A stretch of 64,000 bases of DNA from NCBI RefSeq assembly GCF_024502345.1, contig NZ_JALDNN010000003.1. The stretch is one strand, 5' to 3'. The position numbers and the translations under genes were made by a program. This DNA comes from Escherichia coli. GTDB lineage: Bacteria > Pseudomonadota > Gammaproteobacteria > Enterobacterales > Enterobacteriaceae. This document shows, in pieces, positions 42,515 through 52,603 of the stretch. Position 1 is the stretch's first letter. Each line of letters opens with the position of its first letter. The notes under the pieces were generated by a model. It had not been told where the DNA came from. It searched no databases and saw only the letters and a list, made by a program, of their open reading frames with translations.

Positions 42515-42526
42515 TTTGCGCCGAGT

Positions 42527-42739
42527 CCTTCGGCGGTACCCGCCCGTGAACTCTGCCGCAAGCATGCCATTTCCGATGCCACGTTTTACACCTGGCGTAA
42601 GAAGTATGGCGGTATGGAGGTGCCTGAAGTTAAGCGCCTGAAGTCGCTTGAGGAAGAGAACGCCAGACTCAAGAAGCTGCTTGCCGAAGCCATGCTGGAT
42701 AAAGAGGCGCTTCAGGTGGCTCTTGGGCGAAAGTACTGA
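42527..42739 (+). pseudogene. IS3-family orfA fragment (N-terminus missing)
   Basis: Frame translates to ...[65 protein letters not shown], i.e. the HTH and leucine-zipper portion of an IS3 OrfA, with no initiator codon. Confidence 0.5.
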
Positions 42740-42762
42740 CGACAGACCAGAAGCGGGAAGCC

Positions 42763-43596
42763 GTGATGTTGATGTGTGATGCGACCGGTCTGTCGCAACG
42801 TCGTGCCTGCAGGCTTACAGGTTTATCCCTGTCGACCTGCCGCTATGAGGCTCACCGTCCGGCTGCTGATGCGCATTTATCAGGGCGCATCACTGAGCTG
42901 GCACTGGAGCGCAGGCGTTTTGGCTACCGTCGTATTTGGCAGTTGCTGCGCCGTGAAGGGCTTCATGTTAATCATAAGCGCGTGTACCGGCTTTATCACC
43001 TCAGTGGCCTGAGCGTAAAACGCAGAAGACGTCGTAAAGGGCTGGCAACAGAACGTCTGCCGCTGCTCCGTCCGGCGGCGCCCAATCTGACCTGGTCGAT
43101 GGATTTCGTCATGGACGCACTTTCCACCGGTCGCAGGATCAAGTGTCTTACCTGCGTCGATGATTTCACAAAGGAATGCCTGACGGTCACTGTTGCCTTT
43201 GGGATTTCAGGCGTTCAGGTCACGCGTATTCTGGACAGCATTGCACTGTTTCGAGGCTATCCGGCGACGATAAGAACTGACCAGGGGCCGGAGTTCACTT
43301 GCCGTGCACTGGATCAATGGGCCTTTGAGCATGGTGTTGAGTTGCGCTTAATCCAGCCGGGCAAGCCAACGCAGAACGGATTTATTGAGAGCTTTAACGG
43401 ACGATTTCGCGATGAATGTTTGAATGAGCACTGGTTCAGCGATATCGTTCATGCCAGGAAAATTATTAATGACTGGCGGCAGGATTATAACGAATGCCGC
43501 CCGCACTCCACGCTGAATTATCAGACACCGTCTGAATTTGCAGCGGGCTGGAGAAAGGGTCATTCTGAGAATGAAGATTCCGACGTTACTAACTGA
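42763..43596 (+). CDS. IS3-family transposase OrfB (DDE integrase-like catalytic domain)
   Basis: Typical IS3 OrfB segments: [23 protein letters not shown] and [13 protein letters not shown]. Confidence 0.65.
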
Positions 43597-43786
43597 GTGT
43601 TGTATCTAATCGTGGGGGCAGGTCACTTGGTCGGTGCCATGACGCGACTATTTTCAGGTGATTGCTGATACAACTCACAACAGGCTTGAGCAATGTCGCT
43701 CTTTGCCGTTTCGTGGAAGTGAATAGCCCCCGTACTTAGTTTTTCAGGCACGATACCTTGATTAATGAGCTTGGAGTATTCAGGAA

Positions 43787-44606
43787 GGCACTGTTGCAAA
43801 GTTAGCGATGAGGCAGCCTTTTGTCTTATTCAAAGGCCTTACATTTCAAAAACTCTGCTTACCAGGCGCATTTCGCCCAGGGGATCACCATAATAAAATG
43901 CTGAGGCCTGGCCTTTGCGTAGTGCACGCATCACCTCAATACCTTTGATGGTGGCGTAAGCCGTCTTCATGGATTTAAATCCCAGCGTGGCGTCGATTAT
44001 CCGTTTCAGTTTGCCATGATCGCATTCAATCACGTTGTTCCGGTACTTAATCTGTCGGTGTTCAACGTCAGACGGGCACCGGCCTTCGCGTTTGAGCAGA
44101 ACAAGCGCGCGACCATAGGCGGGCGCTTTATCCGTGTTGATGAATCGCGGGATCTGCCACTTCTTCACGTTGTTGAGGATTTTACCCAGAAACCGGTATG
44201 CAGCTTTGCTGTTACGACGGGAGGAGAGATAAAAATCGACAGTGCGGCCCCGGCTGTCGACGGCCCGGTACAGATACGCCCAGCGGCCATTGACCTTCAC
44301 GTAGGTTTCATCCATGTGCCACGGGCAAAGATCGGAAGGGTTACGCCAGTACCAGCGCAGCCGTTTTTCCATTTCAGGCGCATAACGCTGAACCCAGCGG
44401 TAAATCGTGGAGTGATCGACATTCACTCCGCGTTCAGCCTGCATCTCCTGCAGCTCACGGTAACTGATGCCGTATTTGCAGTACCAGCGTACGGCCCACA
44501 GAATGATGTCACGCTGAAAATGCCGGCCTTTGAATGGGTTCATGTGCAGCTCCATCAGCAAAAGGGGATGATAAGTTTATCACCACCGACTATTTGCAAC
44601 AGTGCC
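43787..44606 (-). mobile_element. IS26 (IS6 family), complete 820-bp copy
   Basis: 14-bp terminal inverted repeats GGCACTGTTGCAAA at 43787-43800 and the reverse complement at 44593-44606; the internal sequence matches my recollection of IS26; the flanking 8-mers differ, so there is no target-site duplication. Confidence 0.9.
43839..44543 (-). CDS. tnpA: IS26 transposase Tnp26
   Basis: Translation MNPFKGRHFQRDIILWAVRWYCKYGISYRELQEM... matches Tnp26 essentially throughout; the track ORF extends 6 codons upstream of the true start. Confidence 0.9.
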   Translation of the reverse strand: MNPFKGRHFQRDIILWAVRWYCKYGISYRELQEMQAERGVNVDHSTIYRWVQRYAPEMEKRLRWYWRNPSDLCPWHMDETYVKVNGRWAYLYRAVDSRGRTVDFYLSSRRNSKAAYRFLGKILNNVKKWQIPRFINTDKAPAYGRALVLLKREGRCPSDVEHRQIKYRNNVIECDHGKLKRIIDATLGFKSMKTAYATIKGIEVMRALRKGQASAFYYGDPLGEMRLVSRVFEM

Positions 44607-44807
44607 GTTAATTCTGCTGGCGGTAGTCGTTTGGTTTACCCTGCCAGAGAGGAAAATACGGCAATTGGGCAAACAGCGTGCCACACCTCACTGATTAGGG
44701 TGTGGTTAACACTTCATTAATTAAACAGTCATTACTCTTACTTAACTGTGTGATATACCTATTTAGGGTTTGAAACATTAGAGTTTGAAATAGGTAAGGT
44801 CTGAGCA

Positions 44808-50557: not shown

Positions 50558-50612
50558 GGTGATGCTGCCAACTTACTGATTTAGTGTATGATGGTGTTTT
50601 TGAGGTGCTCCA

Positions 50613-50888
50613 GTGGCTTCTGTTTCTATCAGCTGTCCCTCCTGTTCAGCTACTGACGGGGTGGTGCGTAACGGCAAAAGCACCGCCGGACATCAGCGCT
50701 ATCTCTGCTCTCACTGCCGTAAAACATGGCAACTGCAGTTCACTTACACCGCTTCTCAACCCGGTACGCACCAGAAAATCATTGATATGGCCATGAATGG
50801 CGTTGGATGCCGGGCAACCGCCCGCATTATGGGCGTTGGCCTCAACACGATTTTCCGCCATTTAAAAAACTCAGGCCGCAGTCGGTAA
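50613..50888 (+). CDS. insA: IS1 InsA
   Basis: Translation [43 protein letters not shown]... matches InsA. Confidence 0.85.
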
Positions 50889-51310
50889 CCTCGCGCATAC
50901 AGCCGGGCAGTGACGTCATCGTCTGCGCGGAAATGGACGAACAGTGGGGATACGTCGGGGCTAAATCGCGCCAGCGCTGGCTGTTTTACGCGTATGACAG
51001 GCTCCGGAAGACGGTTGTGGCGCACGTATTCGGTGAACGCACTCTGGCCACACTGGAGCGTCTTCTGAGCCTGCTGTCGGCCTTTGAGGTCGTGGTATGG
51101 ATGACGGATGGCTGGCCGCTGTATGAATCCCGCCTGAAGGGAAAGCTGCACGTTATCAGCAAGCGTTACACTCAGCGCATTGAGCGACATAACCTGAATC
51201 TGAGACAACATCTGGCAAGGCTGGGACGGAAGTCACTGTCGTTCTCAAAATCGGTGGAGCTGCATGACAAGGTCATCGGGCATTATCTGAACATAAAACA
51301 CTATCATTAA
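50807..51310 (+). CDS. insB: IS1 InsB frame (expressed as InsAB' by -1 frameshift)
   Basis: Translation ...[40 protein letters not shown]... matches InsB. Confidence 0.8.
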
Positions 51311-51339
51311 GTTGGAGTCATTACCAGAGTTTATTGTCA

Positions 51340-51367
51340 AATAAAAAGGCAGATTTCTCTGCCTTAA
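51340..51367 (-). terminator. Terminator-like hairpin downstream of the recombinase gene (minus strand)
   Basis: On the minus strand: AAGGCAGAG-aaa-TCTGCCTT followed by T5. Confidence 0.4.
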
Positions 51368-51412
51368 TACACAATATACATAGTTCAAGGTACTATATAT
51401 AACGCAGGGGCG

Positions 51413-52603
51413 CTACTCATCCAGCGCCTCACGCATGAACTTCGTCATCGCTTTCTTACCTGCGTCAATGTTACGGATATAGCGGGAAACCATTTCTGCA
51501 TTGCTCCAGTTACCCATCTCCATGATCTGCAAGTGCGTGTACCCGGCATCAGCAAGTTCGATGGCGCCGCCAACCCTAACGCTGTGACCAGTCCAGCATC
51601 GGGTGCCCGCTTCCTGCGGATGAAGTTCATCCCAAAACGCTTCAAAGGCCCGGAGCAATGTGTTTTTACTGAGCATACCCTCATCATCGACAATAATGGG
51701 CTTTCCATTTTTCCCGATCGGGGGGCGGGTAGGTCGGTAAGGCATATTATGATTTTTCAGCAGCGTATTGATCTCATTCCCTTTGCTCCGGAGACCCCAT
51801 CCAGGGGGCATATATCCGCTGTCCTGAAAGTTAACTGCCTGGAAGAGATAATCCTTCGGATGGCTTTGCTGGTCCCTTTTGACCATACCCATCAGCCTGA
51901 TTAGGGTGGCAGTGAGATGAGGGGTCAGATGATAGGTAAGCAGGGTACTGACAGTGGATTTTGTCCGGTACACCGTCAGGGTAAAACTGCCTGTCTGTTC
52001 ATTCAGCACAAGGTCCTGCATCCGAATGCGCCGAAGTTCTGCTGAGCGCAACAGTGTTTCAAAACCTGTCCAGATAATGCAAAGGTCTCGGAGTTTGCGC
52101 ACCGACTGTGTCGTACCGTGGGCTTTAATCAAAGCTTTCAGGTCGGAGACTAGGAATGGCGTTGCCTGACGAGTCACTTTTTGCTCTCGGGCTTCAGCTT
52201 GTTCGAGGCTTGCAAGAATACTCTTGACCTTGGATGTGATGATCCCAGGGCGATCGAGTGCTTTCCTATGGATACTGTTCAGCGCGTGCAGACAACCTTT
52301 AATGCTGCTGTGTGACAGCGAGCCCTGAAGATAGTCCAGATAGGACAACAACGGGGGTTGAGTCACCGGGAGAGAACTGGCAGGCCAGGCTTCGTTTCCC
52401 TCCTTTCCTGCATTAGCTTGGTACCACTCGTTCCAGGAACGCAGCCATTGAAGGTAAGTTTTAGCCGTGTGGTATTTCATATGAGAAAAGTAAAAAATGA
52501 GCTCCTTAAGGTCATTATTGGGCACCTCAAACGTGACCAGTTCCTGATGGAGGTCTGAGTCTTCAAACTGTCTGGTTACTGGCTTGCTGTTCATGGTGGT
52601 CAC
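51413..52603 (-). CDS. Cre-like tyrosine site-specific recombinase
   Basis: C-terminal catalytic region GHSVRVGGAIELADAGYTHLQIMEMGNWSNAEMVSRYIRNID aligns with Cre GHSARVGAARDMARAGVSIPEIMQAGGWTNVNIVMNYIRNLD; the RSAELRRIRMQDL segment supplies the upstream conserved Arg. Confidence 0.65.
   Translation of the reverse strand: MTTMNSKPVTRQFEDSDLHQELVTFEVPNNDLKELIFYFSHMKYHTAKTYLQWLRSWNEWYQANAGKEGNEAWPASSLPVTQPPLLSYLDYLQGSLSHSSIKGCLHALNSIHRKALDRPGIITSKVKSILASLEQAEAREQKVTRQATPFLVSDLKALIKAHGTTQSVRKLRDLCIIWTGFETLLRSAELRRIRMQDLVLNEQTGSFTLTVYRTKSTVSTLLTYHLTPHLTATLIRLMGMVKRDQQSHPKDYLFQAVNFQDSGYMPPGWGLRSKGNEINTLLKNHNMPYRPTRPPIGKNGKPIIVDDEGMLSKNTLLRAFEAFWDELHPQEAGTRCWTGHSVRVGGAIELADAGYTHLQIMEMGNWSNAEMVSRYIRNIDAGKKAMTKFMREALDE

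Follow-up and report, generated by a model that had tools for sequence, protein, structure and literature searches.

Organization of the locus

A window of 64,000 nucleotides from an Escherichia coli contig (NZ_JALDNN010000003.1, assembly GCF_024502345.1) contains, between positions 42391 and 51403, a segment composed of insertion sequences (IS), a block of transport and metabolism genes and short pieces of island DNA. This segment is very probably the remnant of a Gamma-Mobile-Trio (GMT) island on an IncHI1-type plasmid, the mobility genes of which have been lost to IS activity. GMT islands are moved by the tyrosine recombinases GmtY and GmtZ together with GmtX, occur on plasmids and carry diverse cargo. 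Insertion proceeds through a circular form and targets a short inverted repeat whose arms are separated by a spacer; afterwards these arms flank the island, and the genes gmtYZX mark one of its borders (bioRxiv 10.1101/2023.03.28.534373). In the window, IS26, IS1, ISSen4 and the cargo are all located inside the island, at the former position of the mobility genes. The remaining island DNA consists of 148 bp of the left end, 161 bp of an AAA-ATPase gene and 78 bp of the right end. The insert, its components and its insertion site are listed below (related sequences are designated by L numbers).

42383..42390, no strand: left arm of the insertion-site hairpin, TAGCGCCC; backbone, outside the island (empty site in L005)
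42391..51403, no strand: degenerate GMT island, 9,013 bp (from the empty-site comparison and termini identical to those of L012)
42391..42538, plus strand: left end of the island, CGAAGGAGTATATAGTAAAAACAG..., 148 bp, 96.7-100% identical to the left ends of L001, L002, L006 and L012
42539..43625, plus strand: ISSen4 (IS3 family) without its first 136 bp, 100% identical to L001 9788-10878
42763-43596, plus strand: orfB of ISSen4 (Pfam rve, rve_3, HTH_21); a remnant of orfA is also present
43626..43786, minus strand: internal fragment (161 bp) of a GMT-associated AAA-ATPase (RecD2-like helicase) gene, 100% identical to L012 16595-16755
43787..44606, minus strand: intact IS26, 820 bp, with perfect 14-bp terminal inverted repeats and a DDE transposase; single copy in the window
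50558..51325, plus strand: intact IS1, 768 bp, with terminal inverted repeats and an insA/insB-type transposase; single copy in the window
51326..51403, minus strand: right end of the island, ...GGTACTATATATAAC, 78 bp; in intact islands this sequence lies just upstream of gmtY
51404..51415, no strand: spacer GCAG and right arm GGGCGCTA of the hairpin; backbone (empty-site comparison)

Insertion site and borders of the island

When both backbone flanks of the insert were joined and used as query, they were found contiguous, that is with an empty site, in 271 related plasmids. Homology to the empty-site plasmids ends at position 42390 and restarts at 51403/51404; in hundreds of them the backbone homology starts exactly at 51403. 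As the backbone halts at 42390 and resumes at 51404, the insert corresponds to 42391-51403 (9,013 bp), and no backbone base has been lost or duplicated at insertion. In L005 (pSE81-1706, an IncHI1B plasmid) the empty site reads TAGCGCCC GCAG GGGCGCTA, the sequence across the site being ...TCATTAGCGCCC directly followed by GCAGGGGCGCTACTC.... The occupied site of the window reads ...TAGCGCCC, the island, then GCAG GGGCGCTA, so that the insertion lies between the left arm and the spacer, the two arms flank the island and there is no target duplication, as described for GMT islands. The whole hairpin within the insertion target (TAGCGCCCGCAGGGGCGCTA) folds into a stem of 8 bp with a loop of 4 nt (-9.9 kcal/mol with DNA parameters). 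It is terminator-like and is located between two convergent backbone genes, a small open reading frame (ORF) and a gene for a Cre-like recombinase.

A reading of the locus made from the sequence alone had described it as an accessory mosaic bounded by IS elements. Its accessory nature is borne out by the 271 related plasmids that lack it. The borders had been misplaced: they are positions 42391 and 51403, which are GMT termini set in a hairpin and not the ends of IS elements.

Termini shared with intact GMT islands

The extremities of the insert, CGAAGGAGTATATAGTA... on the left and ...TACTATATATAAC on the right, constitute an imperfect inverted repeat. The same termini were detected in three other contexts (L001/L007/L008, L012 and L094/L095). 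The first of these is a different hairpin of a Citrobacter plasmid backbone (AACGCCC, island, TTAA GGGCGTT; L001, L007, L008), and a sensitive blastn comparison of the window and L001 backbones revealed no DNA homology outside the island. On the right side, the 4 nt beside the terminus correspond to the spacer of each site (GCAG, TTAA or TTAT).

The closest catalogued member, used here as reference for an intact island, is L012, on plasmid pIncHIB of Klebsiella pneumoniae BP327 (NZ_CP036336.1), which is catalogued at 22.8 kb in Dataset S2 of Mahata et al. (bioRxiv 10.1101/2023.03.28.534373). The insertion point given by the published empty-site sequence of this dataset is the same as the point placed here. 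In L012 the AAA-ATPase gene (2166 bp), a VPA1267-family gene, gmtX, a full-length gmtZ and gmtY are contiguous in this order, and some 15 kb of unrelated cargo is located beyond the ATPase gene. The termini of the window are common to this recognised GMT island, with 96.7% identity on the left and 100% identity over 74 bp on the right. In both L001 and L012, the island runs on past the point where the 148-bp left end of the window stops.

A second comparison was provided by a Klebsiella plasmid (L008/L009), in which the right terminus adjoins two neighbouring integrase genes. The 78-bp right stub of the window is colinear, with zero mismatches, with the right end of the L009 core, and an 87-bp query of the right end (9 nt of which extend into the backbone) is 96.6% identical to L008/L009, beside gmtY. 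The proteins of this core are recognised by NCBIfam models as GmtY (547 bits, cut-off 340), GmtZ (858 bits, cut-off 600; the gene is split by an IS66-family element), GmtX (252 bits, cut-off 40) and a VPA1267-family protein (197 bits, cut-off 90). A RecD2-like ATPase is also present. Among the plasmids, 74 bear gmtY.

The 161-bp fragment located between ISSen4 and IS26 lies within the 2166-bp ATPase gene of L012. When the core proteins of L012 were compared with the window by tblastn, the only match corresponded to residues 493-553 of the 721 residues of this ATPase. No DNA-level match was found between the fragment and the truncated helicase gene of L009, because L009 keeps another part of this gene; the intact gene of L012 settles the identity of the fragment.

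The window element therefore resembles the L012 island in its terminal sequences, in its arm/spacer insertion at a short GC-rich inverted repeat without duplication, in its plasmid location and in the fragment of the same AAA-ATPase core gene. It differs from L012 by its site, an IncHI1 hairpin, and by the loss of gmtY, gmtZ, gmtX and the VPA1267-family gene. Because gmtYZX are missing, the island would be unable to move by itself. Moreover, it holds an IS-flanked block of transport and metabolism genes, whereas defence or offence genes are typical of GMT islands. It is a degenerate member of a known and recently described class of elements, with no new mechanism.

A circular form of the island would carry the junction ...TATATAAC-CGAAGGAG.... 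Concerning L095 (about 9305-12319) and L094 (about 9898-12909), the right terminus is directly joined to a left terminus (...GGTACTATATATAAC followed by CGAAGGAGTATATAGT...), and island-type DNA, in which an MgtC/SapB-family gene and a group II intron are found, continues for at least 3 kb after this junction. The arrangement represents either tandem islands or the fossil of a circular-form junction. The left-end sequence (window 42395-42541) is present at 98.6% identity in the Acinetobacter lwoffii plasmid NZ_MT742180.1 (231201-231347), and relatives of gmtYZ at 76% identity are carried by Vibrio alginolyticus plasmids; the island family consequently reaches well beyond the Enterobacteriaceae. 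In E. coli TC24 (L002, NZ_CP171637.1, 2487899-2517849), a long IncHI1-type backbone containing this island is integrated into the chromosome.

Insertion sequences inside the island

The intact form of ISSen4 is found in L001 (9652-10878), and even there it is not accompanied by a target duplication. Relative to L001, 711 bp are missing from the window, comprising 575 bp of island DNA and the first 136 bp of ISSen4, and the deletion junction displays a 4-nt microhomology (GGTA). An end of ISSen4 at 43636, leaving an orphan sequence of 150 bp, was considered and ruled out by alignment to the intact copy of L001, which places this end at 43625 and gives an orphan of 161 bp. Thus the IS3-family element seen by the sequence-only reading is indeed truncated at its 5' end, but it does not abut IS26, since the 161 bp of the ATPase gene (43626-43786) lie between them. 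In other relatives a second, inverted ISSen4 was observed at 173 bp (L097, 2425-2500) or 128 bp (L099) from the right terminus, and in L097 the IS1 deletion runs into this second copy. ISSen4 has struck this island family repeatedly.

Direct reading of the flanks upheld the earlier statement that IS26 and IS1 are both intact and lack target-site duplications. The flanks of IS26, TTCAGGAA and GTTAATTC, form no 8-bp duplication, and the element is a hybrid copy with its left flank in the ATPase gene of the island and its right flank in the cargo. The other half of the TTCAGGAA duplication was recovered in the plasmid of E. coli AW1.7 (L003). The left flank of the window (...GGAGTATTCAGGAA) ends where the right flank of the AW1.7-plasmid IS26 begins (TTCAGGAATACCCGTTGAGC), and the two sequences join seamlessly in the uninterrupted ATPase gene of L012. 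A single IS26 therefore inserted into the ATPase gene with the duplication TTCAGGAA, the two halves of which have since been separated.

In L002, two direct copies of IS26 surround 4,327 bp of extra genes, exactly at the position of the single IS26 of the window; the difference between the two arrangements thus amounts to one IS26-mediated or homologous event. The extra segment of L002 encodes a thermonuclease, a cupin protein and a chlorite-dismutase-family protein. On the cargo side, IS26 is located 158 bp further out in 118 plasmids, and the IS26-cargo junction of the window is a minority form, probably derived. The hybrid copy would have arisen when IS26 copies recombined, or when an IS26 translocatable unit was gained or lost. 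Both behaviours belong to the established biology of this IS. The window agrees with them in all respects: a hybrid copy without duplication, halves of the duplication in different molecules and a relative with two direct copies.

IS1 is flanked by TGAGCTGCG and AGAGTTTAT, without a 9-bp duplication. Of the ten sequences examined, nine, including the window, have an identical left junction of IS1 with the metB/metC-family gene (...TAATGAGCTGCG followed by IS1), the exception being L007. On its right side, stubs of island DNA of 2731, 376, 375, 319, 160, 78 and 4 bp were found, always colinear with the island end. The extremes of this series are L093 (2731 bp, with a truncated gmtZ and gmtY) and L001 (4 bp), the window and L004 having 78 bp. 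In other records of the IncHI1-type site, the stub next to IS1 is at least 854 bp or only 21 bp long. A constant left junction combined with nested right stubs is the pattern expected from adjacent deletions promoted by IS1, which are an established behaviour of this element. IS1 would therefore have promoted deletions rightwards through the gmt genes, leaving in the window only 78 bp of the island end. As in known cases, one junction is fixed and the junctions on the other side are graded; the sole oddity is that the deletions enter the recombinase genes of another mobile element.

Two junctions of IS1 with gmtY are only one nucleotide apart, at 2500/2501 of L096 (376-bp stub) and at 19906/19907 of L102 (375-bp stub), and they sit in different insertion sites (TTAA GGGCGTT and GCAG GGGCGCT, respectively). 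An event moved between sites, a homologous exchange between islands and a deletion hot spot are possible explanations for this pair. Taken together, the split IS26 duplication and the nested IS1 series, both recovered by the comparison with related plasmids that had been proposed (L003, L002 and the stub series), sustain the earlier interpretation of the missing duplications as products of IS-mediated deletion or recombination.

Genes of the cargo block

The genes located between IS26 and IS1 are the following.

44607..44694, plus strand: 3' end of a small conserved ORF that is truncated by IS26 (83 aa long where complete, in relatives)
44808..45953, plus strand: MlaE-family ABC permease, PA3211-type, 381 aa with an N-terminal extension of about 160 aa (Pfam MlaE, 235 bits)
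45959..46750, plus strand: ABC transporter ATPase, PA3212-type, with about 90% identity to Yersinia (Pfam ABC_tran; supported by the RefSeq CDS of relatives)
46752..47690, plus strand: MCE protein, 312 aa, orthologue of PA3213 (Pfam MlaD), with one MCE domain and a long helical C-terminus
47690..48331, plus strand: PqiC-like outer-membrane lipoprotein, orthologue of PA3214 (Pfam ABC_trans_aux)
48679..49956, plus strand: intact gene of the CyuA-like L-cysteine desulfidase family (Pfam SDH_alpha)
50038..50556, plus strand: pseudogene of a PLP enzyme of Cys/Met metabolism (MetB/MetC family), 173/386 codons, cut by IS1

All four proteins of the operon exceed the Pfam cut-offs and show full-length alignments with Yersinia orthologues; the operon is intact, as the sequence-only reading had stated. 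The permease displays similarity with MlaE homologues of the PDB (E = 1e-30) and is 86-89% identical to its Yersinia orthologues. The MCE protein aligns end to end with chain I of PDB entry 13hr (PA3213) with 59.6% identity, and the lipoprotein matches chain A of the same entry (PA3214) with an E-value of 9e-65. The operon contains, in order, a permease, an ATPase, a single-domain needle MCE protein and a PqiC-like lipoprotein, and is an orthologue of PA3211-PA3214 of Pseudomonas aeruginosa. The term "Mla/MCE-like" used previously holds for its MCE part and not for Mla proper: the cargo block encodes no MlaA, MlaB or MlaC, which accompany MlaFED in the Mla system, and the fourth gene codes for a PqiC-like lipoprotein and not for MlaA.

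According to a 2026 preprint, the system PA3211-PA3214 combines an ABC transporter of the inner membrane with a hexameric MCE needle and an octameric, PqiC-like lipoprotein of the outer membrane; the preprint proposes lipid transport and reports no known phenotype for PA3214 (bioRxiv 10.64898/2026.05.09.724024). The copy of the window has the same gene order, the 312-aa MCE protein and the PqiC-like lipoprotein, but it is plasmid-borne and Yersinia-like whereas the system of P. aeruginosa is chromosomal. By homology, the operon would build a trans-envelope lipid-transport needle; the effect on lipid homeostasis or solvent tolerance put forward by the sequence-only reading is a hypothetical role.

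The CyuA-like protein shows homology over the full length of CyuA (YhaM) of E. coli K-12, with 50% identity over 418 aa (E = 2e-121), in line with the earlier assignment. It is 81-88% identical to Yersinia proteins and matched no NCBIfam model. It shares with E. coli CyuA the Pfam family SDH_alpha and long conserved blocks in the C-terminal half. The genomic context differs, as there is no adjacent cyuP-type importer and the neighbour is a MetB/MetC-family gene, both in the window and in Yersinia. The product would break cysteine down to pyruvate, ammonia and sulfide. The intact ORFs make it probable that both the MCE operon and the cyuA-like gene still function. The MetB/MetC-family gene was correctly seen as cut by IS1: with 173 of 386 codons left, it covers only positions 1-170 of the 381 positions of Pfam Cys_Met_Meta_PP and does not form the complete fold of about 380 aa. 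Its Yersinia orthologues have 386 aa, RefSeq annotates this gene as incomplete, and it is presumably dead.

Spread and source of the cargo

The cargo block (5,951 bp) is present with at least 99% identity in 147 plasmid records from Klebsiella, Citrobacter, Escherichia and Enterobacter. Among 5,426 complete E. coli genomes, it was found in 41, and in seven places it is chromosomal. The 118 plasmids with 158 bp more on the side of IS26 carry the whole small ORF.

The check for a chromosomal source, suggested by the sequence-only reading, led to a syntenic locus in Yersinia. The block is syntenic on the chromosomes of Y. frederiksenii, Y. alsatica, Y. vastinensis and Y. aldovae (one genome per species), where the order is small ORF, permease, ATPase, MCE protein, lipoprotein, cyuA-like and metB/metC-like genes. 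Nucleotide identity with Yersinia is 77-82%; at the amino-acid level it is 74-96%, the six main genes giving 80-96% and the small ORF 74-78%. No near-identical donor was detected among 100,044 species representatives, the best matches being those of Yersinia with about 80% nucleotide identity; a best match at this level indicates that the direct donor is unsampled. As judged from its sequence, the cargo is a captured piece of chromosome from an unsampled Yersinia-like donor. Between the lipoprotein and cyuA-like genes, the region 48332-48678 of the window is AT-rich (about 35% GC). At the same intergenic spot, Y. frederiksenii and Y. alsatica have about 1.4 kb of extra DNA and Y. aldovae has a gap of about 360 bp.

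The block lies inside the position of the GMT core, with the 3' fragment of the ATPase gene on one side and the gmtY-proximal end on the other. This location, together with the bracketing by IS26 and IS1, suggests that the block was delivered by the IS elements.

Neighbouring backbone genes

The right flank of the insert contains the following gene.

51413..52603, minus strand: Cre-like tyrosine recombinase, IncHI1 backbone gene (Pfam Phage_integrase; Cre is the best PDB match)

The similarity to Cre, already perceived from the sequence alone, is supported by the top entries of the PDB search (E = 7e-24); no NCBIfam family was assigned to the protein. The gene also adjoins the empty site of L005 and of hundreds of plasmids; it is thus a backbone gene outside the insert, and not a part of the mosaic as previously proposed. 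A 396-aa gene beside the L001 site was examined as a homologue of this gene, which also codes for 396 aa, since homology could have accounted for a common target; it showed no similarity. Further downstream, the backbone region around 57500-62557 of the window (identity to L004 25922-29951), common to pECO-6357, encodes TnsA-like, Mu-transposase-like (TnsB-type) and ATP-binding (TnsC-type) proteins, a putative Tn7-like module.

Proposed history and alternative explanations

From these comparisons, the following history can be proposed. The sequences show that an island of this family entered the hairpin TAGCGCCC-GCAG-GGGCGCTA of an IncHI1-type plasmid, between the left arm and the spacer, and that IS26 inserted into the AAA-ATPase gene, making the duplication TTCAGGAA. 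A Yersinia-like block with IS26 on the left and IS1 on the right now stands where intact islands have the remainder of the ATPase gene, followed by the VPA1267-family gene, gmtX, gmtZ and gmtY. Recombination of IS26, or gain or loss of a translocatable unit, would have produced the single hybrid IS26. Adjacent deletions by IS1 would have consumed the gmt genes rightwards down to the 78-bp stub. On the left, 575 bp of island DNA and the first 136 bp of ISSen4 are missing relative to L001.

Several observations weigh against this history or against the assignment to GMT islands. The genes gmtY, gmtZ and gmtX were not found in the window by tblastn with the L012 core proteins, so that the border encoding GmtY, GmtZ and GmtX, characteristic of these islands, is missing; membership is therefore supported by the termini, the target site and the relatives instead of the defining genes. 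Parsimony is the argument for the order in which IS26, IS1 and ISSen4 acted. A stage with the cargo beside an intact gmt core would have existed, and no relative was found with the cargo and a complete gmtXZY in one uninterrupted island; the nearest is L093, with the arrangement cargo, IS1, truncated gmtZ and gmtY. All copies of the cargo are at least 99% identical, and their conservation is uninformative on selection. Finally, the 4 nt between the target arm and the conserved left terminus vary, being CGAA in the window (42391-42394) and L012, and TGAT in L001 (8929-8932); these differing bases may bear on the place of strand exchange.

Three other explanations of the insert were compared with the GMT remnant. 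According to the first, the mosaic was built directly in the backbone by the activity of IS26, IS1 and an IS3-family element, the IS elements themselves being the borders. The flanking of the cargo by IS26 and IS1, both without duplications, is consistent with such a construction, as is the occurrence of the IS26-cargo-IS1 block in many unrelated plasmid contexts. However, in comparison with the 271 empty sites the insert extends 148 bp past ISSen4 and 78 bp past IS1, it ends at termini common to intact GMT islands, it occupies a hairpin without loss of backbone and it contains a GMT core-gene fragment between ISSen4 and IS26; a purely IS-built mosaic is accordingly very improbable. Integration by the adjacent Cre-like recombinase, at a site downstream of its own gene, is hardly credible. 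Although the insertion point is only 10 bp past the stop codon of this gene, the recombinase is present in hundreds of plasmids with an empty site, and the same termini are found at sites without such a gene, the 396-aa neighbour in L001 being unrelated and the neighbours in L012 being different. In relatives, moreover, the termini travel with gmtYZX.

It could also be supposed that the MCE/cyuA/metB block is native cargo of the GMT island and that IS26 and IS1 only trimmed it. GMT islands carry diverse cargo, the block stands beside island ends in at least three backbones and the same IS1-cargo junction is found at different insertion sites. Against this, the core of the intact island L012 is contiguous with cargo on its far side, whereas here the block is inside the core; the insertion of IS26 into the ATPase gene is demonstrable; all relatives examined or listed have IS26 and IS1 at the borders of the block; and no intact island with this cargo was found. 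We consider native cargo as quite improbable, while the block may derive from the cargo region of another island. A decayed GMT island into which IS elements brought the cargo remains our preferred reading.

A related question concerns the mobility of the remnant. Having kept both termini, it could be a non-autonomous element mobilisable in trans by intact GMT islands present in the same cell, a proposition that we regard as rather unlikely. The 375- and 376-bp junctions of IS1 at two different sites, together with several plasmids where an intact gmtYZ region and the cargo block are at separate loci, give a hint of such mobilisation. If true, the Yersinia-type MCE/cyuA block could hop between hairpin sites on different plasmids.

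Significance of the decayed island

The decay of this island is an instructive yet fairly ordinary case of mobile-element decay. GMT islands were described only in 2023-24 and are recognised by three genes, and screens based on these genes miss wrecks of this type. The present analysis reveals that resistance plasmids of enterobacteria and IncHI1-type plasmids carry such wrecks, and it names a specific plasmid hairpin as a target of GMT islands. The relatives provide a natural deletion series in which IS1 and IS26 dismantle the recombination module of another element and bring in chromosomal DNA of foreign origin. For a block that occurs in about 150 plasmids and on a few chromosomes of E. coli, the annotation is corrected. 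The plasmid-borne MCE transporter is traced to a Yersinia-like chromosome, and its family is that of PA3211-PA3214, for which structures have been studied.

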